The notes below the pieces were generated by a model. It ran no database searches. It was not told where the DNA came from and saw only the letters and a list, made by a program, of their open reading frames with translations. A DNA stretch of 35,852 nucleotides from a virus (taxonomy: Duplodnaviria; Caudoviricetes), in IMG/VR virus record IMGVR_UViG_3300037755_000487, positions 1-35,852 of that record; one strand, 5' to 3'. Both the position numbers and the translations under genes were made by a program. Of this stretch, positions 1 through 33,065 are shown one piece after another. How positions within the stretch are numbered: position 1 is the stretch's first letter; each line of letters starts with the position of its first letter.

Positions 1-1402
1 TGATGTTTCCGCTCACGCGCGCGCGATCGGCGCAAAGTTGGAATGCGGTCGTACCAACGAGCGGAACGAAATTGTCTTCGACGACCATGTCCGTAATGAT
101 CGTCTGTGCGGATCCTGGGCCGAAGCCGCCTAACGTGTCATCTCCTGCCCCGCCACCCATGGTGTTTCTTCGGATGAGCCAGAATGGCTGGTAGTCGGGA
201 TCGACGACCTGGGAACCGGCCGCATAGGGGTTTGGCCGACCGCCCGCTTGTCGCCATACGTCGTTTCCGAAATCTCCGACCGATTCGGAATGCGAAAGAA
301 TGATTTTAGATCCGTAGTTCCACCGGATGCACCCGCTTACCGGCACACCCGCCAACGCGTCGCAAGTGACACCCATCCATGCTGACCGCGTGTGATCGAG
401 CAAGCCGAAAGATCGCCGTCCCGCGTCCGTCACAGTGACGTCGACGAATGCGAACAGATCGGGCACCTTCAAATTCCCAGACCTGTTCGACAACAGAATC
501 ATGGCGATCTTGTCGACTAACATATCCAGCGCAAGAAAATTCGAGATCCCATCCGCATGGGTCGAATTCGCACGGAACAGCAGGAGTGTCGCCGCCGTGG
601 AATCGTTTCCGATGAAGTCGATTTCTGAAAATGCGACGTCGTCAGAGGCCGCCCCAGAGCCTCCAATATCGTGGAATGCGATTGCGCCGGCGGAAGACCC
701 ATCAACGATCGGATGCCCCCCCGTTGCCCCATAGGCACCGACTCGAATGGGTCCAGTCAGCAGGGTCAGCGTCGATCCATCCTTGGTCCACGTCTGACCG
801 CGACGGAACAGACAACGCGCCGCGCCGCTCGCACCGGCAGCGCCACATGTTGTCATCGCCGTTTCGTAATCGCTCGTCTGGAGCCCCGTCGATCCCGTTG
901 GGCATCCGTCAGCGCCGCCGGTTGGCGTCGCATCGGTCGCTATGCAGTATGTCGACGCCGCGAAGACGGTGTCGGGGTCAGTGACGGTCACGTCGACTGT
1001 GTCCGTATCCACGTTCCCAGCCTCATCCGACACTGTCAACGTAATCGTTTTCGCCGCGCCACCACCCGACTCGAAGACGTGAGCCGATATGCATCCTCTG
1101 TCGGCGTCTTTCGTGTCTCCGCTCACTGCCCACGTCTGGCCAGTCGTCTCGCCGAAATCCCAGTGACACTCGAGATCGCGGAATGGATCCACGTCCGAAT
1201 CAGTGTGAGCCGACACCGTCGCGTCGAAGAATACGTAGAGAGGAGCAACGCCACTCGTGCGCGACGCCTCGACCGACGCGGTGATCGGCGACCCGGGAGG
1301 GTCCGTTCGTTGCGTCCCGCCGCCGCCCATCATGCTCGGGCTCGGCCATCCGGTGAGGACGAGCGCAACGCTCGCCAGGGCGACGGATCGCGGAGTGCTC
1401 AC
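1..1402 (-). CDS. PKD-domain protein with hydrophobic N-terminus and probable beta-helix region (3' end outside window)
   Basis: Translated by hand, absent from the ORF track. GTG at 1402 overlaps the upstream TGA (GTGA). Reads MSTPRSVALASVALVLTGW...ASRTSGVAPLYVFFDAT...ECHWDFGE...AHVFESGG..KTITLTVSDEAGNVDTDTVDVTV (PKD-like WDFG motif) and stays open to the window edge. Confidence 0.75.
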   Translation of the reverse strand, partial: MSTPRSVALASVALVLTGWPSPSMMGGGGTQRTDPPGSPITASVEASRTSGVAPLYVFFDATVSAHTDSDVDPFRDLECHWDFGETTGQTWAVSGDTKDADRGCISAHVFESGGGAAKTITLTVSDEAGNVDTDTVDVTVTDPDTVFAASTYCIATDATPTGGADGCPTGSTGLQTSDYETAMTTCGAAGASGAARCLFRRGQTWTKDGSTLTLLTGPIRVGAYGATGGHPIVDGSSAGAIAFHDIGGSGAASDDVAFSEIDFIGNDSTAATLLLFRANSTHADGISNFLALDMLVDKIAMILLSNRSGNLKVPDLFAFVDVTVTDAGRRSFGLLDHTRSAWMGVTCDALAGVPVSGCIRWNYGSKIILSHSESVGDFGNDVWRQAGGRPNPYAAGSQVVDPDYQPFWLIRRNTMGGGAGDDTLGGFGPGSAQTIITDMVVEDNFVPLVGTTAFQLCADRARVSGNI

Positions 1403-4400
1403 GGCGACACCCACCCGACGTTGCTAGTCGAGTACCAATTGCCGCCCGCCGCGCCGAGCTGAAGAAGGCAGACTTGATCACCCGCCGTTGAACTGGAGAT
1501 CGTTACCCCGTCGGCCAGGTCGTTGCCGTCGAGCTGGATTCGATCCGCCGCGTCCGGGTCGATCGAGTAAGCGGCGCCGTCCAGGTTCCGGAAGCAGCAA
1601 CTCTCGCCGAACGGGGCCGCGACGAGCGGTAGGACGGTCGTGTAGGGACCCCCTGTGAGCGCGATCATATCGCCCAAACACTGCGACTCCGTCAGCGTAT
1701 CACCTGCCGACTGAGAATTTGCTAGGCGGACGTACCCAGCAACGAAACTCGACGTGACGAGAGACGTCCCGGTTGCCGCCCCGATGTCCCCGCCCGCGAA
1801 GAGTGCCGAGCCCGTCCCGGATTCGTCGCTGATGATCGCGCGCAGCTTCGCGCTCGTGTCGATCTCGGAGGTGCGCAGCAATGCGGAATCAATCCGAGCA
1901 TCGGCAACGGTTCCGGCCGTGATGTTCGATCCGCTGATGCCGGTTCCGATTTTCGCGCCGCTGAGAGTTCCGTCGGCCAAGTCGTCGAGGTCCGCGTCCC
2001 ACGCCTGCACGCTCGATCCGATGTCGGCGGGGACGAGAGGTAGCGGGCTCCATCCGCGCTCCGAGAGGACGATCCAACCGTTGACGTTATTCGATGCGAT
2101 CCGAACCCGGTCGCCACGGGCTCCGTTCGAGACGATCGAGACGCCGTCGGCCAGATCCACTCCGTTTATTTGAATCCGATCCGCCGCGTTCGGAGTGATC
2201 GTATAGACAGCGTCGTCGAGCGCGTAGAAGGTGCATTCTTCCTTCGCGGGCGCAGACACGGCTTCCAATGTTAGTTCAAATGGTCCACCGATCATCGGGT
2301 GGACTTCACCGAGACAATCGATCTGCGGAACAACGTCGCCAAAGCTGTACGGCGCATAGACCGTTCCACCCTTGATCGTCCCGGTCGTCGCGATCGATCG
2401 CGTTGCCGGGTCGCCCGCGAGCTGGCGAATCGGACCGAGCGACGACTGATAATCGCAAGCGCCAGAGTTGGATGTTCCGACTTTTGCGCAGAATCCTTGA
2501 TCGCCAATGTCGATCGTCACGCTCGACGAAGCGCCGCGCATAGCAGCGCCGGACAGAATGTCCGCATCGAGGAGATCGTCGTAGGTGAAATCAGCGGTGT
2601 CGATCGGGTCCTCCAGATGCGCGCGAATCCGCAGCGTCTGGATATCTCCGCCCGAGGTCGTCGTAATCGCCGGGTATCGTGCGATCGAGAGATCCGAGTC
2701 GTCGACGAACGTCCCGGGCTTGGATCCAGAGAGCACGAGATCGAGATCGAGCATCCCGACCGTCCCAAGCCTCGCGATGCCTCGGAAGCAGTAGTCACCG
2801 GATATTTCGATGCGGCCGTTCAGCTCTTCCGTCGACGAGCCACCGTCGAGCATATACGAGTCCGCGCCTAACGTCGTGTCCTCGCAGTTTGCCCCGGTCT
2901 TGTCGCCGCGAATTCTGAAATCAACATTACCGCCGTTGAGGAACCCGATCGGCCCGTCGATTTCACCTGACAGCGCGATCGAATTTCCGGCCATCGGCGC
3001 GTTGAAATCGAAGAATCCGCCAGGGTTCGCAGGACCATTGATGCTCGTCAACCGCCACCTGAACGCACCGCCGATGGTGGTCGTCGCTGCCCCCTGCGTC
3101 GTCGGGTCGATCACGTCCGCCCAGGGACGCTGATGAAATCCTCGATCGCCCTCCCAGTACGACGCGCCCGAGACGTATGTCTGTGTTGCTGCGCCGACGG
3201 ATAGCGACGCATCACCGCGGAGATCAAGCTGGGGATTCGCGCTCGCGAGGTCGCTCCGGCCTGCGTGGCCGCCGAGCTTCGTGTCAATCAGATAGAGCCG
3301 GGTGGCGTACGGTAGTCCGTCACCCGACACGGCGGCGATTCCCGCGTCGGCCACGAGCTGATCGTCTCCCTCGGTCGCCAGCGCGTAGCGCTCACAGAGT
3401 GCGGTCGGAGCGCCGTCGCACCCCGCGTAGTCGCTGCTCAGGTGTCCGTTCCGAACGATCACGATCGCATCGTGCTGCACACCGCCGCAGACATCGCTCG
3501 ATCCGAGGTAGTACTCGTCGCCGGACGCCTCGACGCAGGGAGTGGGCGTGCCGGCCCCGTCCGTCGAGCCGTAGAACAGCGTGACGTTCTTTTTCGCGCC
3601 GCTCGTCGCGAGTATATGACCGTTGAAATCGATCGAAATGATGGGAGCGTCCGACCCGCCCGTCGGCAGATACCACCGGATCGGTATAGCTGGGTCGTAG
3701 GTGTAGTCGTCGGCGAGGATGACCGACGCCATGATCGTTTCGGTGTTAGTCGCGCTCGGGAGGACGAGCGACTGAAAGTAGGCGTTCAGCTCGCCGTTGC
3801 TCGACACGGCAACGGGGGCACCCAGTGTCCCGGCGACGCGAAGCGCTTCGAGCGCGTCGATGAGGATCTTGTCGGCTGCGCTGAGAACACCGGCGTCCGA
3901 CGCGTTCGCAGCCGGGATCGTCGCATCCGTCCCGGTGTCGCTATTGATGGTCACCTGGGAGGCGGCGGGCGTCGCAGTGAGGTTCGTCGCGCCTCCTCCG
4001 ACGCCCGATCCGCACGGTAGACCCGATGCAGCCTCGACCAGGTCGCCGGTCGCGTCGTACTCCACGCAATTGCCGGCCGTTCCTGCGGTGCCCGTCACGA
4101 GCTGGCCGTCGGTCCCGGTCCGGAGAGTCGCATCGATCTGACCGATGGAGTTGATCGCGCCGTCCGAAATTGAACCGTCCGCCTCGAGGGCCGCGGCATT
4201 TCCGAAATCGCCTGACTCCGGGACGTCGTCCTCCGTCGAAAGGATCCTCGCATTGAGCTCTGCGAGCGCCGCTTCGACGTTCACCGCCGTGAAAATCGAG
4301 CCCGCGTCCTCAATACCGATGAGGCTCGCGCCCTGCCCTGTCGACGTGCTGGCAAGACTCGACGACGCGAGAGCGCCGACCACCTGGCCGACCGTGTAGT

Positions 4401-4740
4401 CGCCGGACTGGGCAGTGACGGCGCCCGAGCGTCCGAAGACAGTCGAGACGCCGCCACCTCCCCCGGCAGTAAGCGTAGAAGCGAGAACTTTCCATTCAAG
4501 GATGTTCTTGTCGCAGACGCAGTAATTGAGCTGCGCGAAGAGCGGAGTCCCGCCGCCGTCGCAGGTGTCGGCGCTGACCGGGTCCGTGACGACGTAGTTG
4601 CTGATCACGTTGGCCGAGCAGGTCGGGAGCGCATCTGCGATTGTGTTCATCGCGGTGATCGGTCCGAATTGGATCTGCGCCATCGCCATCGTCGGAAGAG
4701 CCAAGACCAAGGCGATCGCTGCGAGTGTTAGTCGAACCAC
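1399..4740 (-). CDS. Large (~1113 aa) Gly/Ala/Thr/Asp-rich fibre- or adhesin-like protein with signal-peptide-like N-terminus
   Basis: Start re-called to GTG 4740, which has an AAGGAG RBS 6 nt upstream; the longer ORF overlaps two other genes. N-terminus MVRLTLAAIALVLALPTMAMA-Q; VSTVFGRSGAVTAQSGDY motif; duplicated C-terminal domain. Confidence 0.75.
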   Translation of the reverse strand: MVRLTLAAIALVLALPTMAMAQIQFGPITAMNTIADALPTCSANVISNYVVTDPVSADTCDGGGTPLFAQLNYCVCDKNILEWKVLASTLTAGGGGGVSTVFGRSGAVTAQSGDYTVGQVVGALASSSLASTSTGQGASLIGIEDAGSIFTAVNVEAALAELNARILSTEDDVPESGDFGNAAALEADGSISDGAINSIGQIDATLRTGTDGQLVTGTAGTAGNCVEYDATGDLVEAASGLPCGSGVGGGATNLTATPAASQVTINSDTGTDATIPAANASDAGVLSAADKILIDALEALRVAGTLGAPVAVSSNGELNAYFQSLVLPSATNTETIMASVILADDYTYDPAIPIRWYLPTGGSDAPIISIDFNGHILATSGAKKNVTLFYGSTDGAGTPTPCVEASGDEYYLGSSDVCGGVQHDAIVIVRNGHLSSDYAGCDGAPTALCERYALATEGDDQLVADAGIAAVSGDGLPYATRLYLIDTKLGGHAGRSDLASANPQLDLRGDASLSVGAATQTYVSGASYWEGDRGFHQRPWADVIDPTTQGAATTTIGGAFRWRLTSINGPANPGGFFDFNAPMAGNSIALSGEIDGPIGFLNGGNVDFRIRGDKTGANCEDTTLGADSYMLDGGSSTEELNGRIEISGDYCFRGIARLGTVGMLDLDLVLSGSKPGTFVDDSDLSIARYPAITTTSGGDIQTLRIRAHLEDPIDTADFTYDDLLDADILSGAAMRGASSSVTIDIGDQGFCAKVGTSNSGACDYQSSLGPIRQLAGDPATRSIATTGTIKGGTVYAPYSFGDVVPQIDCLGEVHPMIGGPFELTLEAVSAPAKEECTFYALDDAVYTITPNAADRIQINGVDLADGVSIVSNGARGDRVRIASNNVNGWIVLSERGWSPLPLVPADIGSSVQAWDADLDDLADGTLSGAKIGTGISGSNITAGTVADARIDSALLRTSEIDTSAKLRAIISDESGTGSALFAGGDIGAATGTSLVTSSFVAGYVRLANSQSAGDTLTESQCLGDMIALTGGPYTTVLPLVAAPFGESCCFRNLDGAAYSIDPDAADRIQLDGNDLADGVTISSSTAGDQVCLLQLGAAGGNWYSTSNVGWVSP

Positions 4741-4751
4741 GGTGAACTCCT

Positions 4752-5105
4752 TCAAGATAGGCCTGGGAGCGGAGCTGCGAGCGGATCGATTCCGATCACG
4801 TTGACGCGGCTCACGGCGATGATCACGCCGATGGGATTGTTGAACTCGAACCAGACCGTCCCTTCCTTCGGGTGGTCCCAGAAGAGCGGATCGAAGCGCG
4901 GACTGTTTCCGCCCGGCGCGGCATAGACGTACTCGTAATCGGACATCCCAGCGTGCGGAGCGTGGACCGTGAGCGTGCGCGGATCGGCGTCCTGGATGAA
5001 GAACGTAAGAAGCTGAGTCCCGTCGTTCTTGAATGTGTCTCCGCCCGATGCCGAAGCGGCAACGAAGGACAAGCTCGGTCCTGTGGACATGGGAATCAGC
5101 GCCAC
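4752..5105 (-). CDS. Hypothetical phage protein, beta-rich, possibly structural
   Basis: 117-aa ORF tightly packed in the tail operon, abutting the upstream stop. Confidence 0.65.
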   Translation of the reverse strand: MALIPMSTGPSLSFVAASASGGDTFKNDGTQLLTFFIQDADPRTLTVHAPHAGMSDYEYVYAAPGGNSPRFDPLFWDHPKEGTVWFEFNNPIGVIIAVSRVNVIGIDPLAAPLPGLS

Positions 5106-5447
5106 CTAGCCGTCCTCCAGGAGCGCACCGATTCGCGCGATCGCCTCGCCCTCGTCGAAGTCGATCGTCTGCGAGAGCACCTCCGAGAAGACTCGAACGA
5201 TCGCTGCCAAGACGGGATCTCTCGACATGCGACGCGCAAGTAGATTCCCGCCAGTAAGCGGAGTCGACTTCGGCGAAACACACGTCACGATCTTCCCGTT
5301 CTCGAATCGCCGCTCTCCTGGGTTGTCGATGCAGACCTGCCACTGGTTCGACGTGATGCTGAAAGCCTCGGCGGGAATCACACGATGGATCGCGTCGTCG
5401 TAGTAGGCGATCGGGTGCCCGGCGTCGTCCGTTTGACAGAATTTCAT
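5106..5447 (-). CDS. Putative tail fibre assembly chaperone
   Basis: Directly follows the tail fibre gene; ATG 5447 with GGAAGG RBS; 'YYDDAIHRVIPAEAFSITSNQWQ' resembles fibre-assembly N-termini. Confidence 0.6.
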   Translation of the reverse strand: MKFCQTDDAGHPIAYYDDAIHRVIPAEAFSITSNQWQVCIDNPGERRFENGKIVTCVSPKSTPLTGGNLLARRMSRDPVLAAIVRVFSEVLSQTIDFDEGEAIARIGALLEDG

Positions 5448-25496: not shown

Positions 25497-26155
25497 CGAG
25501 ACCGCCGCAGACTCGGGCGATCGAGCGGGACGAACCCCGGCCCCGGGTCGCCCATGAGCCGGTCGTAGGCTCTCGGTAGCTGCGTCGCGAGGCTTTTCTC
25601 GCCCTCGGTCGGGTGGACGTTGGTCGTGACGATCGTCGACTTCATCGCCTCCCAGCGTCGATCGATAATCTGGTCCAGAACGGCGAGGGGCCACGCGTGC
25701 TCGTAGGCCGTCCCCCAATCGTCGAGCACGAGAGCATCGACAGACTCAGCGAGATCAGGGAGGCGACGTTGCTTCGCGAACACCGACTCGTAGAGGTCGG
25801 CGCACTTGATCACCGCGGCCGTCGGGACGCCGCGCCCTGCCCGGCTGCGACTCAGGTACAGCTCCCGCAAGCACCAGTAGGCCGTCACGCTCTTGCCGGA
25901 CCCTGGACGCCCGGCGAGGATCATCGACGCGCCTCGGTCGGCCAGGCGTAGCCACGCGTGCGCTTGCCGCGGTATCAGATCCGCCTGCACCTCGAGGAGC
26001 CGGAATCGTTCCGGCACGCCGTAGCCACGCATGGCGATCTCAATCGCGAGCGGAGAGAGGCGCTTTTCGAGCCACTCTCGGAATTGTTGGTTGTCGTCCT
26101 GAGTTTCGTTCCACGCGGAACGGTGGGTCGCGGGGAACTCGGCGACGTTAGTCAT
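25493..26155 (-). CDS. DnaC/IstB-like AAA+ helicase loader
   Basis: Start re-called to ATG 26155 (ATGA overlap); Walker A GRPGSGKS, Walker B LVLDDWG, IIDRRW...STIVTTN. Confidence 0.88.
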   Translation of the reverse strand: MTNVAEFPATHRSAWNETQDDNQQFREWLEKRLSPLAIEIAMRGYGVPERFRLLEVQADLIPRQAHAWLRLADRGASMILAGRPGSGKSVTAYWCLRELYLSRSRAGRGVPTAAVIKCADLYESVFAKQRRLPDLAESVDALVLDDWGTAYEHAWPLAVLDQIIDRRWEAMKSTIVTTNVHPTEGEKSLATQLPRAYDRLMGDPGPGFVPLDRPSLRRSR

Positions 26156-27087
26156 GTGCGGACTCCTCGGTTTTTCACCTCCTCGGAGGCGGACTCCCAA
26201 TCGAAGACGCCGCGAGCGGAGGCGGTCGGCGCGACCTTGATCGGCTTGCGGTTGTTCCACCACCGCAGCATGACGACCTTGGCTTTGGCGGAGAAGGCCT
26301 TGTCCTCGAGCTCCTGGTCCTCGGCTTCGACGGTCGCTGCGATCACGGGCCAGTTCTCGTCGAGCCATTCCGTCGGCGTTGAGGCGCGCGTCCCGTCGAG
26401 TCGAGGCGGCGGCGAACCGTTCAAGAGATTGAGGAGCGGCGAAGACGGGCCTGGAGGAGCGAGGCGATCGCGAGGAATCAGCGGGATCAGGGTCCCTTGT
26501 GCGGTCAGTGTTCGGCTGTTCGGCTGTTCGGCGTGTTCGGCACCGTGTTCGGCACCGTGTTCGGCACCGTGTTCGGCACCATGTTCGGCACCGTGTTCGG
26601 CACCGTGTTCGGCTTGTTCGGCTTGTTCGGTGTTCGGGTGTTCGGCACCTTCGCTCCCTCCTGAGCGAAGCGAAGGAGGGTTCTTCTCTTTTAATAACAA
26701 TGAGATAGAAGAAGCTAAGAAGCGCGCGAGGGCGAGAATCTCGGATATCTGTTCGGCTTGTTCGGCACCGTGTTCGGCGTGTTCGGCACCGTGTTCGGCT
26801 CGTGTTCGGCTCGTGTTCGGCTCGTGTTCGGCTCGTGTTCGGCACCGTGTTCGGCTCGTGTTCGGCACCGTGTTCGGCTCGTGTTCGGCACCGTGTTCGG
26901 CTCGTGTTCGGCACCGTGTTCGGCTCGTGTTCGGCTCGTGTTCGGCGGACCGGCACCATGAATTCACGGTGCTGATCGATCGTCCCCAGCGCCCTCGATA
27001 GTCGCGCTGCGTCCGCACAATGCCCGCCGCGCGGTCAGCCGCGAGCATCTCGAGCGCTTGATCTTTCGTCAGCCGTTCCACTCTCAC
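26152..27087 (-). CDS. Putative replication initiator (lambda O-like position) with internal repeats
   Basis: N-terminal HTH-like TQRDYRGRWGRSISTVNSW; AEHG/EPNT repeats; lies between Cro-like and DnaC-like genes. Confidence 0.65.
   Translation of the reverse strand: MRVERLTKDQALEMLAADRAAGIVRTQRDYRGRWGRSISTVNSWCRSAEHEPNTSRTRCRTRAEHGAEHEPNTVPNTSRTRCRTRAEHEPNTSRTRAEHGAEHAEHGAEQAEQISEILALARFLASSISLLLKEKNPPSLRSGGSEGAEHPNTEQAEQAEHGAEHGAEHGAEHGAEHGAEHGAEHAEQPNSRTLTAQGTLIPLIPRDRLAPPGPSSPLLNLLNGSPPPRLDGTRASTPTEWLDENWPVIAATVEAEDQELEDKAFSAKAKVVMLRWWNNRKPIKVAPTASARGVFDWESASEEVKNRGVRT
26509..26946. repeat. Two arrays of TGTTCGG(C) repeats flanking an AT-rich spacer; candidate replication origin
   Basis: About 14 copies in 26509-26646 and about 18 in 26750-26946, mostly 11- and 12-bp units; AT-rich 26681-26722 between them. 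Confidence 0.8.
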
Positions 27088-27346: not shown

Positions 27347-27386
27347 GTTCGGGGATAGTGAACACGCAATCCGCGATCCCGTCAAG
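27347..27386 (-). promoter_or_regulatory. Leftward phage promoter/operator
   Basis: Minus strand CTTGACGG-N13-GTGTTCACTATCCCCGAAC, then GGAGG and GTG; same layout as the element at 33026-33065. Confidence 0.75.
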
Positions 27387-27427: not shown

Positions 27428-27435
27428 GGGCTGCT
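27428..27435 (+). repeat. Target site duplication, left copy (GGGCTGCT)
   Basis: Identical to 32698-32705 and flush with the TIR. Confidence 0.9.
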
Positions 27436-27458
27436 GGTAGTGTCCTTCCCCTGAGGGC
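27436..27458 (+). repeat. Left terminal inverted repeat GGTAGTGTCCTTCCCCTGAGGGC
   Basis: Exact reverse complement of 32675-32697. Confidence 0.95.
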
Positions 27459-27468
27459 ATCATAAAGC

Positions 27469-30018
27469 CTACGGCCGCGTGCCGAAGGAGTCGGGTTCCA
27501 ATATTCCCGTTAGCTCGTCCCATGACTGGCGTGCTTCTACGATCGCCTCAAAGTACTTCTGAACTGGGTCGGCAATTTTCCTCCGATCTTCAGGAGACTG
27601 CGGTAAGGGAACTCGAACCTCTCGCCAATGGTCTCCCAGGTGCTCTCGGTTCGTCTGCATCAACGTCAAGGTTGGATACTGCTCCTGCACCACCTTGAGT
27701 GACATGAGAGCGAGTAACAAGAACGGCGTGATGCCTTCCTCGTTCTCTAACACCCGGATGACAAGTACCTCCTTGGTCAACAGAATATTCGTCTGCCATG
27801 GGAGCACGAGGGAGAACTGACCAATGTTTGAAGAGGCTCTGGCTGGCGAGACCAAGTCGCCGTAGTGAAGCTCCGGACCGCCACGCTTTTTCTCGTCGGC
27901 CACGCTTTCATGAACGAAGTTCGTCGGATTCTCGTTGATTCGCCAGTTCTTGAGGTCTGTGACCTTCACGTAGGGAATTGCTCCAGTAGCCCGCGCATTT
28001 CCAGGCGGCGAGCCGTGCCCCCCGTAGGTAGCGACGATCCCACGATCGGACAGGTCGCCGAGAGTCACAATCTCTGACGGGTGCTTATTGCCCCACGCTC
28101 GCACTGCCTTCTCTGAATCCTTCCGCCACCAGAATCTAGGAACTAAGACGCCCCGCTTCCTTGCCTTTTCCTGAGGAACCAGAAAGCGAAATCGTGCATT
28201 CCCTGGCGCTGCCTTTGCTTTCTCCTTCCCGCGGTACTCAGCCGCGACGATCTCCTTGACAGCCTCCGCCATCTCATTGTCTAGTTCGCCGGTGCGCTGA
28301 CCAGACTCGTTCACCCTCTTGAGAAGATTTCCCTTCCTGTCTTGGCCGATGGTCCGGGGGAAGCTCATGATAATTTGGTGGCCCTTCGGCGGAGTGCTTT
28401 TGGTCACGAACATTAGACAGGTTTTGGCGCGGCAGAACTCCTCGAATGCAACCATTGGAACATCTACCACGTGGGTAACGGTCATATCGCGGCACACCCA
28501 ATCGACAAACCATCTAAACGTCTTAGAGAAGAGGAAAGTTTCCGGAAGGACGATGGCCATGCGACCACCGGGCTTTAGGAGTTCCAGGTCACGTTCGAAG
28601 AAGGCCAGTCCGAGTTGCTGTTCGACTACATCCTCGCTCGGCTTCCAGTGCTTGCCTTCAAGTCTCCACCGACGGCACGTCTGCAATTTCTCCGACCGTC
28701 CAACTTCCACACCGACTTTAAGATTCTTTCCGAAAGGAGGATTGGTCATGACAAGATCGAACGCGGCGGATTTAACGGCCCCCTCGAGATCGTCGCTCCG
28801 ATCGGGCCAATCACCGCGGTCGATCATGTTCGCACGGTAGACGTGAGAGCGACCGTCTCCAAGAAGCGTGAGGTACGCCTTGCAAAGCTTTGTCGATACC
28901 ACATCCTTGTCCGCGGCCATCAAGCTTTCTTGAGCCCATTGCCGCTTCGCCTTGTCCTTCGCGTCGGCGGACAAGTGCTCACGTTCGTCGATTCCCTTGA
29001 ATACATGGTCGAGGGACGCTGCAAGGAAGCCACCAGTACCGCACGCTGGGTCGATGACTCGTGATTTGTGGTCCGGGTCGAGAATGGAAACCACGCAGTC
29101 CACGATTGGTGGCGGGGTGAAGTAGGCACCTTCCTCACCCTTGAGGGCTCTGCCGCGAAGAATCTGGAATGCCGTTCCGACTGCTTGTCGATCATGGCCA
29201 AGGAGCCGATACGGTTGAAGTGTCCGAACGACTGTCTCGATGCTCGCATCATCAACGTGAAATCTATCCGTCTCGTCAGTGAAAACAGAGCTTAGGCGAC
29301 TCTTTACATCCTCGAAAAATACACGTATGGCCTCGCCTGTATTTGGGCGAGATCGACCAAGCTGAAAGGCGAGCGAACGTTCCGGCTCCAACTCACCATG
29401 CTGCTCGTCGACAATCTTGCATATCAGTAGATTCGCAAGGTCGTTGAGAATGAACTCATCCCGATTAACGTGGGTGTCCTGGGCAGCGATGTAGTCGCGG
29501 AGCCGTCGGAATATTTCGCCAAGATTGGGCGGCGGGATCAGGTCAGAGTAATGAAGCGGCTTATCGGTCTCGGTTGGAGCAAGGGGATCTGTCGGGCGAG
29601 GGATGGGTGCGTAGTCGTTGACCTCGAATCCATCACGGGTTTTGTAGACAAGCCGATGAGACGCGCCGTTGAACCAGATTCCGAGCCGGGCTTCAGGTTC
29701 AAGCGATAGGTATGTCTTTAGCTGACCAATTCCTTCTGTCTCGTCAGGCGCTTTGCACTCTACAAGAATCTGAACATGGTCAGGGTCACCACGCGTCTCG
29801 ACCGAGTCAAAGATCGCGATATCTACTGGGAACCCTTCTCGGCGCGCTCCGGATGGAGTCCGCGGCACACGCCATTGTGGTCGCGTGATGATCTGTTGCG
29901 GATTCCATCCCATGCGTTGAGTTAGATAGAAGACGAGCGGTTGTGTGGCGGACTGCTCTTCCTCCCCGGCGAGAATCTCACGTCCCGAAAGCGCATCAAT
30001 GACTACAGATTTTGCCAA
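27469..30018 (-). CDS. Single-chain restriction-modification enzyme (nuclease, N6-adenine MTase, target recognition domain; Type IIG-like)
   Basis: N-terminal PVDIAIF...VECKAP...GQLKTY nuclease; GAYFTP, DPACGTGGFL (motif I), NPPF (motif IV); C-terminal HsdS-like IPYVKVTDL region. Confidence 0.88.
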   Translation of the reverse strand: MAKSVVIDALSGREILAGEEEQSATQPLVFYLTQRMGWNPQQIITRPQWRVPRTPSGARREGFPVDIAIFDSVETRGDPDHVQILVECKAPDETEGIGQLKTYLSLEPEARLGIWFNGASHRLVYKTRDGFEVNDYAPIPRPTDPLAPTETDKPLHYSDLIPPPNLGEIFRRLRDYIAAQDTHVNRDEFILNDLANLLICKIVDEQHGELEPERSLAFQLGRSRPNTGEAIRVFFEDVKSRLSSVFTDETDRFHVDDASIETVVRTLQPYRLLGHDRQAVGTAFQILRGRALKGEEGAYFTPPPIVDCVVSILDPDHKSRVIDPACGTGGFLAASLDHVFKGIDEREHLSADAKDKAKRQWAQESLMAADKDVVSTKLCKAYLTLLGDGRSHVYRANMIDRGDWPDRSDDLEGAVKSAAFDLVMTNPPFGKNLKVGVEVGRSEKLQTCRRWRLEGKHWKPSEDVVEQQLGLAFFERDLELLKPGGRMAIVLPETFLFSKTFRWFVDWVCRDMTVTHVVDVPMVAFEEFCRAKTCLMFVTKSTPPKGHQIIMSFPRTIGQDRKGNLLKRVNESGQRTGELDNEMAEAVKEIVAAEYRGKEKAKAAPGNARFRFLVPQEKARKRGVLVPRFWWRKDSEKAVRAWGNKHPSEIVTLGDLSDRGIVATYGGHGSPPGNARATGAIPYVKVTDLKNWRINENPTNFVHESVADEKKRGGPELHYGDLVSPARASSNIGQFSLVLPWQTNILLTKEVLVIRVLENEEGITPFLLLALMSLKVVQEQYPTLTLMQTNREHLGDHWREVRVPLPQSPEDRRKIADPVQKYFEAIVEARQSWDELTGILEPDSFGTRP

Positions 30019-30071
30019 GTCAAGTTCCCCCGAGGAGAGAGTCTCTCATGCGGCGGGGGCAATCACAAGTC

Positions 30072-30908
30072 CTATCGACCGTAAATTTCTCCGGCCTCGA
30101 CTAGGTCATCGATCCGCCATTGACGGTCGGCAATTCCGGCAGCGATTGCCGGAGTCGTCTTAATCGTGCTGTGATTCCGCACGAAGTTGTAGTACGCAAA
30201 GTGCAGCGAAACGGCCGCTTTCAGGTTGTCGGCCTTCTTCGAGAAGCCGTTGGTGAGCCGGGTCAAGCGGCGCATTCCCATGCGCATGGTGAGGTTCTGG
30301 CGTTCGACGTGAGACGTTGAAATCCGGCTGGGATCGGGGCTCCCGAAAACCTTATCCTTGTCGACTCCGACGACCATGGGCGGGCTGTACCTACGCTCAC
30401 CCAGGTCTTCGACGCGGAAGCGCTTTACGATTCGGCCGTAGTCGACGTTGTTCTTTCCGAGCTGGCCCGCGATCGCGAACTTGTAGGCGGCGAGCTTGTC
30501 GGTGCTGATCTGCACGCGGCCCTCGACCCGTCGAGCGACGACCTTGAGCAGCGCGTTCGCGTCGGGCTGAGTGCGCTTCCCGACGTGATGCGCGGGAACA
30601 AGCTTTGATTCGGGATCCATGGCAACCCACGTCCAGAAATCCCCGACCTTTCGCTCGTCGTCGTCCTTCTGGACCCGTGCCCGCTTCTTTCCGACGAACC
30701 CCCAAATCTCGTCGAGCTGAAGCTCTCGGCACTCGACGTGGCGGATATGCTCCTCCGAGAGCCGATCGCAGCCCTTGCCGGTCTGGACAACCACCTTGGT
30801 GATCGTGTCGCGGTGAGCACCCGTCATGCGCTCAGTCGAGCGGATCGAGCTGCCTTCGACAAGGCATCGAAGGATTTGGGCTTTTGTGTCGGTGGTGAGT
30901 CGTGCCAT
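30072..30908 (-). CDS. IS1-family DDE transposase (single ORF)
   Basis: Start re-called to ATG 30908; HTH LVEGSSIRSTERMTG; DDE motifs QLDEIW, STDK and HVERQNLTMR; C-terminal FSKK...YNF. Confidence 0.9.
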   Translation of the reverse strand: MARLTTDTKAQILRCLVEGSSIRSTERMTGAHRDTITKVVVQTGKGCDRLSEEHIRHVECRELQLDEIWGFVGKKRARVQKDDDERKVGDFWTWVAMDPESKLVPAHHVGKRTQPDANALLKVVARRVEGRVQISTDKLAAYKFAIAGQLGKNNVDYGRIVKRFRVEDLGERRYSPPMVVGVDKDKVFGSPDPSRISTSHVERQNLTMRMGMRRLTRLTNGFSKKADNLKAAVSLHFAYYNFVRNHSTIKTTPAIAAGIADRQWRIDDLVEAGEIYGR

Positions 30909-30968
30909 GTAGATTAATGTATTACGTTTAATGTTGGCAGTCAATGGTTTATGTGATACAAAAAAGGC
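30909..30968. promoter_or_regulatory. Divergent promoter pair for transposase and RHH gene
   Basis: Minus: TTGACT-17-TACATT, 7 nt before the ATG. Plus: TTGGCA-17-TACAAA with extended -10 TG, 6 nt before the ATG. Confidence 0.6.
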
Positions 30969-31154
30969 ATGGCAGCAAAAAAGAAACGGCCGCCGGGAAG
31001 ACCAAGGCTTGCCCCGGGTGAATCGAGGCAGGAAACCGTGACGCTCAGGGTGCGGTCTGAGGATGCCGAGAGAATGAGGATGGCGGCTGATAGTGCTGGG
31101 CTATCCTTTTCGGCGTGGGCGAGAAAGATTCTCACCGAAGCCGCCGGCAAATAG
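30969..31154 (+). CDS. Ribbon-helix-helix (CopG-like) regulator
   Basis: 61 aa; GRPRL...TVTLRVRSEDAERMRMAADSAGLSFSAWARKIL. Confidence 0.8.
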   Translation: MAAKKKRPPGRPRLAPGESRQETVTLRVRSEDAERMRMAADSAGLSFSAWARKILTEAAGK

Positions 31155-31226
31155 GTGGAACGGTGGGGAATCGAACCCCAGAGGGCCAAGGTGTAGAGCC
31201 GGGCCTGGGAACCATCCCGCCGCCCC
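31154..31226 (-). ncRNA. Non-canonical tRNA-like cloverleaf with CUA anticodon
   Basis: Folded by hand: GGGGCGG C GGGA-TGGT-TCCC A GGCCCGG-CTCTACA-CCTTGGCC CTC TGGGG-TTCGATT-CCCCA CCGTTCC A CC. Confidence 0.6.
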
Positions 31227-31319
31227 GAGCGTTGGGTGGAGAGCGGCGCGACGTAACCCGCCAAGGCACGATCGAAGTGCCGCTCTCCTCTCGGCCGCCC
31301 AACCGGCCTCAGCGTATCC

Positions 31320-32060
31320 TCACGAGCCTTCCTCCTCGTCGGTGTTGGGATCTTCATCCGCCCCTTGCGCCGACTCATATGAGCGCATTTGGTCGATGAG
31401 CCCGAACACGAAGTCGCGGTCAGCGGCGTCAAGCGCGAAGAGATCGAGACTGGCCGAAAGGGTGACTGTGCCGCCGCTGAGCTCGATAGTTTGGGAAGGG
31501 CCGCTCGGCTGCTCAGGTTGAGCGTTGATGCGATCGTTGTTTCGATTGCGCTTTGCTGCCGACTTGCGAGCAGCCTTCTTTCGCGGCGATCCCGCTCCGG
31601 CTTTCGGCCCCGGCCGCGGCTTCGCCAGGAGCGGGGAAACCTTGACACCCACGTAGTCCAGGCAGGTAATCAGGAACCGCACGGCTTTGGTGCGCGTTGT
31701 GCCGGAGACGCCATACGCTTCACCCATCCGCTCGGACAACTCGGCAGGCGTTGTCTTCAGGAGGTCTAGAGCGAAAATGTCCGAATACCGAGATTCGATG
31801 ATCGCTCGAAGCTCTCGCTTGCGAGCGTCGTCGTCCGCGACTGCGACACTATGCATCGCCTCCAACGGCTTCCCGGCGTCATCAATCATGCCAAGGAATT
31901 TGAACCCGGCGAGCAATTGAGTCTGAACACCGCCCGAAAGCCCCGGAAAGACGCTGCGATCAATTCGGTTGGGAACGCCCTGGGAGAGCTGTTTCAACGC
32001 GTTCTCGAAGGTCCCCCACGCGACGTATACGGCGGCGGGCGAGTCGTCTGAGTTTGCCAT
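31320..32060 (-). CDS. DUF5343-like protein (probable winged-helix DNA-binding)
   Basis: YVAWGTF...VPNRIDRSVF...LLAGFKFLGMIDDAGKP...YGVSGTTRTKAVRFL; GGAGG RBS; family call from recall. Confidence 0.65.
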   Translation of the reverse strand: MANSDDSPAAVYVAWGTFENALKQLSQGVPNRIDRSVFPGLSGGVQTQLLAGFKFLGMIDDAGKPLEAMHSVAVADDDARKRELRAIIESRYSDIFALDLLKTTPAELSERMGEAYGVSGTTRTKAVRFLITCLDYVGVKVSPLLAKPRPGPKAGAGSPRKKAARKSAAKRNRNNDRINAQPEQPSGPSQTIELSGGTVTLSASLDLFALDAADRDFVFGLIDQMRSYESAQGADEDPNTDEEEGS

Positions 32061-32061
32061 C

Positions 32062-32129
32062 TCGAATCCTCCAATTGCGGAACGTTCCTAAGATTATGGT
32101 ATCTCGGAACGTGCCGCAATTAGATTCGA
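32062..32129. promoter_or_regulatory. Long inverted repeat in the divergent intergenic region
   Basis: AATTGCGGAACGTTCC (32073-32088) and GGAACGTGCCGCAATT (32106-32121) match 15/16; outer TCGAATC/GATTCGA arms. Confidence 0.55.
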
Positions 32130-32176
32130 TGAGATTATTTGTTTACTCCCGGATATCGTCGAATTATAATGATTGA

Positions 32177-32374
32177 ATGGATCAAAAAATCGAGATAGGT
32201 CAGTCAGTTACGCTTCTTTCTGCTCATGGTCCGATCAATCGCGTAGTTGTCAACGTCCTCGATGGTATCATTCTGGTCTGCAAGGCCGAGGAGTTTCAGG
32301 CGGCGCGAAGGGAGCATCGGGATCCAATTTCGATCGGCTTTCCGATCGATGACATCGTTCCTACGGCTGGCTGA
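32177..32374 (+). CDS. Small hypothetical protein (65 aa)
   Basis: ATG follows a TATAAT; beta-rich ORF closely followed by the next gene. Confidence 0.6.
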   Translation: MDQKIEIGQSVTLLSAHGPINRVVVNVLDGIILVCKAEEFQAARREHRDPISIGFPIDDIVPTAG

Positions 32375-32378
32375 TCCC

Positions 32379-32669
32379 ATGAATCAGACCCCTCTCCCTG
32401 ATTTCATCGCCGCCATCCGCGCAATGCACGGCGCTGCTTCCAAACTCCTGACACGGGAGCCCGTCCACGAGCAGTTCGAAGGCGAGACGGTCTGGGAAGG
32501 CGAAGTGCTGGTGTTCGAGCTGTCAGACCATCCCACAGCCTCGAAGTGCTTCGCCTGGGAGGTCGACGGGGAGATCACGGCTGTCCTGGCCGAAGGGCCA
32601 ATTCAGACCGCTACAGACGCCGTGAGAGCTTCGATCTGGGCGGATGGGTCAGTGGAGCAGGAGGCGTGA
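32379..32669 (+). CDS. Hypothetical protein (96 aa) at the right end of the transposon
   Basis: Start re-called to ATG 32379; PVHEQFEGETVWEGEVLVFEL..HP.A..CFAW...AVRASI; stops 5 bp before the TIR. Confidence 0.7.
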   Translation: MNQTPLPDFIAAIRAMHGAASKLLTREPVHEQFEGETVWEGEVLVFELSDHPTASKCFAWEVDGEITAVLAEGPIQTATDAVRASIWADGSVEQEA

Positions 32670-32674
32670 GTCTG

Positions 32675-32697
32675 GCCCTCAGGGGAAGGACACTACC
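32675..32697 (-). repeat. Right terminal inverted repeat
   Basis: GCCCTCAGGGGAAGGACACTACC, reverse complement of 27436-27458. Confidence 0.95.
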
Positions 32698-32705
32698 GGG
32701 CTGCT
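32698..32705 (+). repeat. Target site duplication, right copy (GGGCTGCT)
   Basis: Identical to 27428-27435. Confidence 0.9.
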
Positions 32706-32965
32706 TCGCTTCTGACCGGAGGCAATCTCTCGTTGCCACTGTTCTTGGCCTTCTGTGAGGCTATCGATACCCCGGTCTCCAGGGTGCTGGAAGAAGGCAT
32801 GCTGGCAAAGCACCGCGATGTGGACAGGCTGACATCCAATGGCTCTCGAAAATCGACGCCCGCGAATACCGCGTGGCGATGAAGGGCGCGAGAGACGCCG
32901 TTGATCTCCACCGCCTCCGGGAATCCGAGAAGAAATCCCCGACTCGCGACAGGGACGCCAAATAG
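32698..32965 (+). pseudogene. Possible remnant of an XRE-type (cI-position) repressor, interrupted and frameshifted
   Basis: AASLLTGGNLSLPLFLAFCEAIDTPVSRVLEEG resembles the second half of an XRE HTH; a plausible helical continuation (IQWLSKIDAREYRVAMKGARDAV...) lies in another frame; divergent from cro. Confidence 0.4.
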
Positions 32966-33002
32966 CCGGTCTACATAGACTTTTTATCCTACCGGCAAAT
33001 TA

Positions 33003-33065
33003 GTTCAGTTTCCCCGAACATTAGTCTTGACGGTTCTCTATCCGTAGTGTTCACTATCCCCGAAC
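33003..33065 (+). promoter_or_regulatory. Rightward phage promoter with two operator-like sites
   Basis: GTTCAGTTTCCCCGAAC (33003-33019), TTGACG (33027-33032), GTGTTCACTATCCCCGAAC (33047-33065), then GGAGG and ATG 33082. Confidence 0.75.

Follow-up and report, generated by a model that had tools for sequence, protein, structure and literature searches.

The viral contig examined here (Duplodnaviria; Caudoviricetes; IMG/VR record IMGVR_UViG_3300037755_000487, 35,852 nucleotides, which make up the complete record and are referred to in full as the window) carries between positions 27,428 and 32,705 an IS1-family unit transposon of 5,262 bp, framed by a target-site duplication and loaded with genes on both sides of its transposase. 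Taken as a whole, we think it probable that the transposase mobilizes the entire element, that the cargo includes a predicted one-chain restriction-modification (R-M) enzyme, and that an alanine-charged, tRNA-like RNA encoded in the element acts in trans. The element shares its architecture (GGTAGTG ends, 8-bp duplication, 1 to 6 kb, variable cargo on either side) with a large family of relatives, and both the RNA and a gene for a 96-aa protein recur in its branch of that family.

The terminal inverted repeats (TIRs), at 27436..27458 (+) and 32675..32697 (−, recovered by inverted-repeat search), are 23 bp long and 100% complementary, the left one starting with GGTAGTG (the IS1-type GGnnnTG); no further copy occurs in the window, even allowing five mismatches. 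Immediately outside both repeats, at 27428..27435 (+) and 32698..32705 (+), GGGCTGCT is read directly from the sequence as an exact 8-bp duplication of the kind seen in related elements, and the chance probability of a given 8-mer with the composition of GGGCTGCT is about 4 × 10−5. The outermost genes stop 10 bp and 5 bp short of the TIRs, and GC content is 0.573 in the element versus 0.633 in the remainder of the window. Only one transposase and two TIR copies are present, not the two IS copies flanking cargo that define a composite transposon. The initial annotation of this stretch, made from the sequence alone, had proposed these ends and distances, a non-composite element of the IS1 family in which cargo flanks a single transposase lacking a zinc finger, and a content of R-M gene, transposase, ribbon-helix-helix (RHH) gene, tRNA-like RNA, DUF5343-like gene and two small ORFs, all of which was borne out; the products measure 849 aa (R-M), 278 aa (transposase), 61 aa (RHH) and 246 aa (DUF5343-like), and the small ORFs 65 and 96 aa. 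Its further suggestion of recent insertion is plausible but undated, an exact 8-bp duplication being the family norm (108 of 138 elements) and no empty allele having been found. The host contig is a tailed, myovirus-like phage (terminase, portal, major head, tail sheath and baseplate genes), and the insertion point lies between a leftward unit (small helix-turn-helix [HTH]-like ORF, replication gene, DnaC-like loader) and a rightward phage unit.

The transposase (30072..30908, −; assigned by Pfam, NCBIfam and alignment) is a single-ORF IS1-family DDE enzyme of 278 aa, which passes the cut-off of PF03400 (DDE_Tnp_IS1; 34.8 bits against 24.1) and contains three cysteines and no CxxC motif. D66, D137 and E202, which from knowledge of the family we take to be the DDE triad, are invariant in all 44 aligned transposases; no solved structure was found for the protein. 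Classical IS1 has 23-bp inverted repeats and 8- to 9-bp target duplications, values that the element shares with it along with the DDE_Tnp_IS1 domain and the GGnnnTG ends, and an IS1-type DDE transposase with such ends and an 8-bp duplication places it in the IS1 family. It differs from the classical subgroup, which is marked by an insA/insB −1 frameshift and an N-terminal zinc finger, in having one uninterrupted ORF without either, a length of 5.3 kb and passengers on both sides. Both the GGnnnTG ends (PMC6807381) and the frameshifting (PMC5009743) of IS1 are described in published sources. Insertion sequences whose ends enclose a transposase together with passenger genes form an established class, the transporter IS (tIS; PMC9330008, PMC7986276), and the present element, with its passengers lying between one IS's own two ends, belongs to that class by the definition in PMC9330008.

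Relatives were surveyed in 261 loci fetched around transposase homologues, samples limited in size, so that counts by source are not rates; at least 8,000 protein clusters are related to the transposase. When inverted repeats were sought without a motif, 18 of the initial 37 viral loci proved to have GGT-type ends; guided by the motif, the search delimited 151 of 262 sequences (94 of 127 where both sides had at least 5 kb). Removal of 5 candidates without GG..TG ends and of 8 duplicates left 138 distinct elements, spanning 1,085 to 6,014 bp (median 3,107), among which the window element is the third largest. More than 300 bp lie upstream of the transposase in 137 of them and on both sides in 79, so that members of the family typically have their transposase in the middle, flanked by cargo. 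The cargo is highly variable, its 574 ORFs falling into 392 clusters. The delimited elements came from cellular genomes (52), viral sequences (56) and metagenome contigs (29), and pattern scans, using partly different patterns, found an estimated 9,500 or so stretches in genomes and 266 in viral contigs. Only one of 50,697 isolated-phage records held a transposase homologue. The earlier proposal that the element carries defence genes into phages is therefore not specific.

In the transposase tree the window sequence pairs, on a long branch, with that of locus L038, a 3.3-kb element with its own ends and duplication whose transposase is 86% identical and which has different cargo, the same 96-aa gene and the same RNA; among relatives with a name, the nearest one, which falls in the 86% cluster, comes from a gammaproteobacterial metagenome-assembled genome. 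Midpoint rooting of the tree gave no clean clade for either the 96-aa gene or the RNA, and we do not claim that they co-evolved with the transposase. Within the family, one 6-kb element has an IS1595 transposase nested in it (L139:7799-8764). In another locus (L028:5936-8963), two family ends with a near-matching duplication lie upstream of the transposase and enclose another copy of the 96-aa gene; this may be an element that is nested or non-autonomous. An IS1 subgroup named ISMhu11, reportedly set out by Siguier in 2009 and 2015, is said to lack the zinc finger, keep the HTH and reach about 4.6 kb, with passengers such as methyltransferases and regulators, upstream only, and with few members described. 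The window element fits these features (no zinc finger, HTH, passengers between the ends) and may belong to the subgroup. Compared with ISMhu11 so described, the present family has cargo on both sides in 79 of 138 elements, sizes up to 6 kb, and recurring tRNA-like RNAs and 96-aa companion. In the literature searched, outside whose scope most subscription journals lay, neither ISMhu11, ISNisp5 nor ISOba3 was named in the sense of an IS1 subgroup, and no description of this family carrying tRNA cargo was found.

The largest passenger (849 aa; 27469..30018, −) was characterized by motifs, homologues and structure comparison. It combines an N-terminal PD-(D/E)xK nuclease motif (D66, E87, K89), an m6A methyltransferase (DPACGTG at 323, NPPF at 426) and a C-terminal specificity-like domain, residues 635-849 resembling Methylase_S proteins (0.97). 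Its family is conserved over the full length (65-72% identity); across an alignment of 54 homologues D66, E87, K89 and NPPF never vary, and the nuclease motif is kept in 98 of 102 full-length ones. The best solved relative, RM.BsaXI, a single-chain IIG/IIB-like enzyme, shares the N-terminal PD-(D/E)xK motif and gamma-type m6A methyltransferase on one chain, whereas its specificity function resides in a separate subunit and the corresponding domain is here fused at the C terminus. These motifs point to a predicted one-chain restriction-methylase-specificity enzyme (type IIG-like). An assignment to MAD2 of the MADS system was rejected (232 bits against an equivalog cut-off of 720, with no other mad genes in the element). 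One homologue, P0304, additionally bears an IS1595 transposase domain.

The initial annotation had called the payload defensive, which holds, as a prediction, for the R-M gene and not for the DUF5343-like gene. Across the family, 140 ORFs from 213 larger or shared cargo representatives were scanned for defence genes, with 100 random flank ORFs as control. The PADLOC matches in cargo included RmrTA, PD-Lambda-2 and -5, SoFic, HEC, IetA, TIR and methyltransferases, and homologues of proteins with such a match occur in 41 of the 138 elements. Defence genes thus make up a genuine, though not dominant, part of the cargo, most of which is unannotated. A two-gene cargo (an HTH protein of about 380 aa matching PD-Lambda-2_B and a 160-aa protein without assigned function) recurs in L002, L014, L146, L154, L186, L209 and L236, and the same pair, there unannotated, is found in a Mesorhizobium loti plasmid (L262), a family element in a cultured bacterium that lacks the RNA described below. 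A cargo protein of about 310 aa without assigned function recurs in L042, L100, L170, L212 and L232, and proteasome-subunit-like proteins in L037, L219, L227 and L091, directly behind the transposase.

The tRNA-like RNA (about 73 nt; 31154..31226, −; identified by homologues, alignment and a covariance model) has a 7-bp acceptor stem with G1-C72, G2-C71 and G3:U70, followed by A73, a reduced D arm, the loop CUCUACA and a canonical T arm. G3:U70 with A73 is the identity signature of tRNA-Ala. CCA is not encoded here and is encoded in 4 of 17 copies. Directly upstream lies a long G+C-rich hairpin (31238..31288, −), a place where several relatives have hairpins of unrelated sequence. ARAGORN made no call at default settings and the Rfam match, to transfer-messenger RNA (tmRNA), reached just 26.6 bits where the gathering score is 47, yet we regard the RNA as real because homologues exist. 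In L038 a homologue stands 30 nt before the transposase. A T-arm-plus-acceptor search of 246 distinct loci gave 26 sense matches (22 loci) and no antisense match within 500 nt upstream of the transposase, against 0 to 6 matches in every other bin. Spacing to the transposase is about 30 to 90 nt on the same strand in L038, L052, L119, L122, L199 and L275, and the RNA is on the opposite strand in L087 and L057. In 12 aligned copies of this short class, acceptor and T stems are 100% paired with compensatory two-sided changes and G3:U70 is present in 12 of 12; G3:U70 with A73 also occurs in L087, L039, L057, L274 and L275. A covariance model of the class found additional copies in the loci, and was tested on three independent samples, drawn by phylum and each comprising 151 genomes. 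Only two non-seed matches exceeded 60 bits, both in family elements (L275, beside a family transposase; L274, next to the 96-aa gene and to a family end where the contig breaks off), one sample yielding nothing; matches at or below 45 bits were ordinary tRNA-Ala. The initial annotation had listed the RNA and the 96-aa ORF as cargo; both recur in this element's branch of the family.

The loop pairs best in the register N-U-Y-U-A-C-A (43 vs 14 and 22), which puts UUA (10 copies), CUA (3), UUG (3) or UCC (1) in the anticodon place, that is, CUA or UUA in 13 of 17 copies. The RNA departs from a canonical tRNA in lacking a full D arm, a purine at position 37 and an ARAGORN call. With the tRNA-like domain of tmRNA, its best Rfam match, it shares an alanine acceptor stem and T arm, and it differs in its subthreshold score, in having neither mRNA-like domain nor tag, and in having instead a 7-nt anticodon-like loop. 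Allo-tRNAs with G3:U70 and UUA anticodons have been described from soil and sediment metagenomes near toxin-antitoxin and transposon-related genes (Mukai et al., PMC5389517), and aberrant tRNAs of this kind have been reviewed (PMC7609411). The two share G3:U70, stop or mismatched anticodons and such neighbouring genes, but allo-tRNAs have 8/4 or 9/3 acceptor/T stems and long variable arms, whereas the present RNA is 7/5, about 73 nt, with a reduced D arm, a short variable loop and C37. Compared by eye with 24 entries for tRNA0 and 2 for tRNA2 from PMC5389517, it resembled none of them.

Unrelated tRNA bodies occupy the same upstream slot in other family members, some being full tRNAs with odd pairings of anticodon and body. 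Leu/Ser-type long-arm tRNAs with a UUA anticodon and G37 lie inside two elements (L060:11132-11217, L230:9628-9715) and are closer than the RNA of the window to what a canonical ochre suppressor would look like, which makes them candidates for that role. Further tRNAs in or at elements have anticodons that by eye do not fit their bodies (L129:8002-8088, L174:8466-8540, L225:9798-9871, L143:9551-9623, L235:9627-9880), and tRNAs also occur in tandem (three in a row in L235; two in L084, L132 and L147).

The mechanism that we favor would begin with the transposase binding the ends through its N-terminal HTH and joining them to a target with an 8-bp stagger, by analogy with IS1. With no IS1 frameshift, transposase expression is probably restrained by the divergent RHH protein at a shared promoter; a sigma70-like promoter match, by consensus, lies upstream of the transposase, between the two genes (30916..30944, −). 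The R-M protein would methylate its own replicon and cut unmodified incoming DNA, an activity that would protect the lysogen or host and stabilize the element. The RNA likely derives from tRNA-Ala, being cut from a transcript running towards the transposase and given its CCA, after which host alanyl-tRNA synthetase would alanylate it through G3:U70. The role that we prefer for it would be that of a weak stop-codon suppressor (of UAG here, of UAA in most relatives) or a tRNA decoy, acting in trans. Action in trans is favored because the identity pair G3:U70 and the loop are conserved; a processing role in cis is nearly as likely because of C37 and the fixed position.

Several results weigh against this account. 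The best NCBIfam match of the transposase, the IS1 model NF033558, scores 69.3 bits, under the cut-off of 100. Among viral contigs, the exact junction motif expected of an empty site gave 0 matches, and so did a search for other copies of this element's TIR, two checks that the initial annotation had proposed; a search via the flanking replication protein found no relative, and the one sequencing run that contains the stretch, probably its source and covering it in part, showed no joint across the element. PADLOC matches were about two-fold enriched in cargo over flanks, at borderline significance (24/140 versus 8/100; P = 0.053), and 116 of the 140 representatives had no match. As to the RNA, its minimum-energy fold in the window is not a cloverleaf and is no stabler than shuffles (z = −0.59); it is present upstream in only 22 of 246 loci, and ARAGORN tRNA density is not higher inside elements (15 in 462 kb versus 92 in 1,896 kb of flank). 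Of 17 copies, 16 have C at position 37, a residue that working tRNAs do not have there; U33 is absent in three, and shifting the register of the loop by one base gives UAC instead. Non-seed matches are biased towards G3:U70, since the covariance model scores this pair favorably, and kinship among the sequences inflates the shuffle control. A read-through target in cis was sought and rejected: the stops behind the transposase mismatch the anticodon and the frames stay open for just 3 to 59 codons in 15 of 17 loci.

It is possible, although we doubt it, that the RNA acts only in cis, its excision by the host's tRNA-processing enzymes determining where the transposase mRNA starts and how stable it is, in place of IS1 frameshift control, with the alanine features a relic. 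The fixed place and strand shortly before the transposase in the six loci named above, the unrelated tRNA bodies in the same slot, and C37 with the reduced D arm, which argue against efficient decoding, all fit such a role. Yet G3:U70 and A73 are kept though neighboring acceptor pairs change on both sides, the loop is conserved although processing has no need of it, and in the window the RHH gene, on the opposite strand, separates the RNA from the transposase, the two loci with the RNA on the other strand pointing the same way. Alternatively, the RNA could be a toxin or antitoxin, either an alanine-charged tRNA that would poison translation when induced by misreading stop codons (or, if the register is shifted, Val codons) or a decoy for anticodon nucleases, which we rate as rather unlikely. 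In its favor, PMC5389517 describes allo-tRNAs with G3:U70 and UUA in the neighborhood of toxin-antitoxin genes and of an ORF related to transposons, and Escherichia coli was killed when missense versions were induced; family cargo also includes RmrTA, MazF-like, Panacea, Fic, HipA-like and NYN genes. However, no toxin partner is fixed, the sole steady companion being the 96-aa protein, which is also found without the RNA, and several of the allo-tRNAs tested failed to translate (PMC5389517). Finally, it seems improbable that this branch, a widespread one, carries an alanine-charged stop-codon suppressor RNA and a dedicated 96-aa protein as a core module that would rewire host translation, with the wider family a vehicle of the irregular tRNAs of soil and sediment.

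A different doubt concerns the cargo at large, which may have been captured at random by a selfish passenger, the R-M gene serving as an addiction module and insertion into the phage being a neutral or damaging accident instead of defence delivery. We entertain this tentatively: the dispersion of cargo ORFs over so many clusters, the modest PADLOC enrichment, a site between divergent early phage units and the single isolated phage with a homologue are all consistent with it. Set against this are the 41 elements with homologues of PADLOC-matched proteins, the intact catalytic motifs, and the recurrence of modules (R-M homologues in L163 and L221; the DUF5343-like gene with its divergent partner in L103 and L273). 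That the repeats arose by chance and the genes are an unrelated island beside an ordinary small IS has almost nothing to recommend it apart from the missing empty site; perfect 23-bp repeats with the family consensus, the exact duplication and the same build in more than 100 relatives already contradict it.

Should the account of a cargo-carrying unit transposon hold, an IS1 lineage that is very common (8,000 or more protein clusters) and has seldom been described would be a compact, one-gene carrier of 1 to 5 kb of cargo in bacteria that have not been cultured and in the phages of these bacteria. Because its ends are sharp, candidate modules for defence or of the toxin-antitoxin type can be delimited by them, and the 116 PADLOC-negative representatives form a list for screens. 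Orphan irregular tRNAs would gain a genomic home, raising the question of whether a tRNA encoded by a transposon becomes charged and decodes stops. Should the RNA prove inert, the element is a well-formed new member of the transporter-IS class, a class that is known, while the scale of this family, its cargo pool and its alanine-type RNA with stop-codon loops are poorly described.

The remaining genes of the element lie to the right of the transposase. The RHH protein (61 aa; 30969..31154, +), divergent from the transposase, has homologues in six other elements and is NikA-like at 26.6 bits, slightly below the cut-off of 27. The DUF5343-like protein (246 aa; 31320..32060, −; assigned by Pfam and predicted fold) scores 17.8 bits, below cut-off, while many of its homologues carry PF17278. 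Its predicted fold comprises a helical/winged-helix N-terminal domain, a basic linker and a small C-terminal domain, the first 140 residues being confident, and is weakly like the recognition domains of FokI, BspD6I, BrxA and SspB (Z 5.4-7.1; FokI, Z 7.1, rmsd 3.2 over 141 aligned residues; BrxA, Z 5.8; Foldseek, a weak E of 0.12). No evidence of a nuclease was found in this protein, and likeness of fold establishes no function. It forms a divergent pair with the 65-aa ORF (32177..32374, +), the two separated by overlapping divergent promoter-like sites that match the consensus (32134..32170), and in both other loci with this pair it stands beside a family transposase. The 96-aa protein (32379..32669, +), recognized by its recurrence and without assigned function, is a companion of the branch: its gene is found in 16 of 21 elements with CCT-type ends versus 1 of 117 others, in varying position. 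It is predicted to fold well; its best structural match (Z 5.6) is not a clear one, and its Atlas matches are unnamed.

Outside the transposon ends, a perfect 19-bp inverted repeat at 27347-27365 and 33047-33065, with a partial copy at 33001-33019, lies upstream of the two divergent phage units; these repeats are likely phage operator sites, and with the element removed some 420 bp would separate them. Interruption of a phage XRE gene was considered: by eye the right flank at 32700-32882 (+) resembles the second half of an XRE HTH, but it has no Pfam match, the same frame is open for just 6 codons ahead of the junction, and the left flank has no open 5' half; we do not claim an interrupted gene, and the frame is possibly a decayed repressor. 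Elsewhere in the window, a putative replication gene (26152-27087, −) upstream of the DnaC-like loader gene contains iteron-like tandem repeats of 11-12 bp, a 1,314-aa ORF without a PHROG match lies behind the tail fibre genes (1399-5343, −), and repeats with a 36-bp period occupy a coding region at the contig end (35400-35750).

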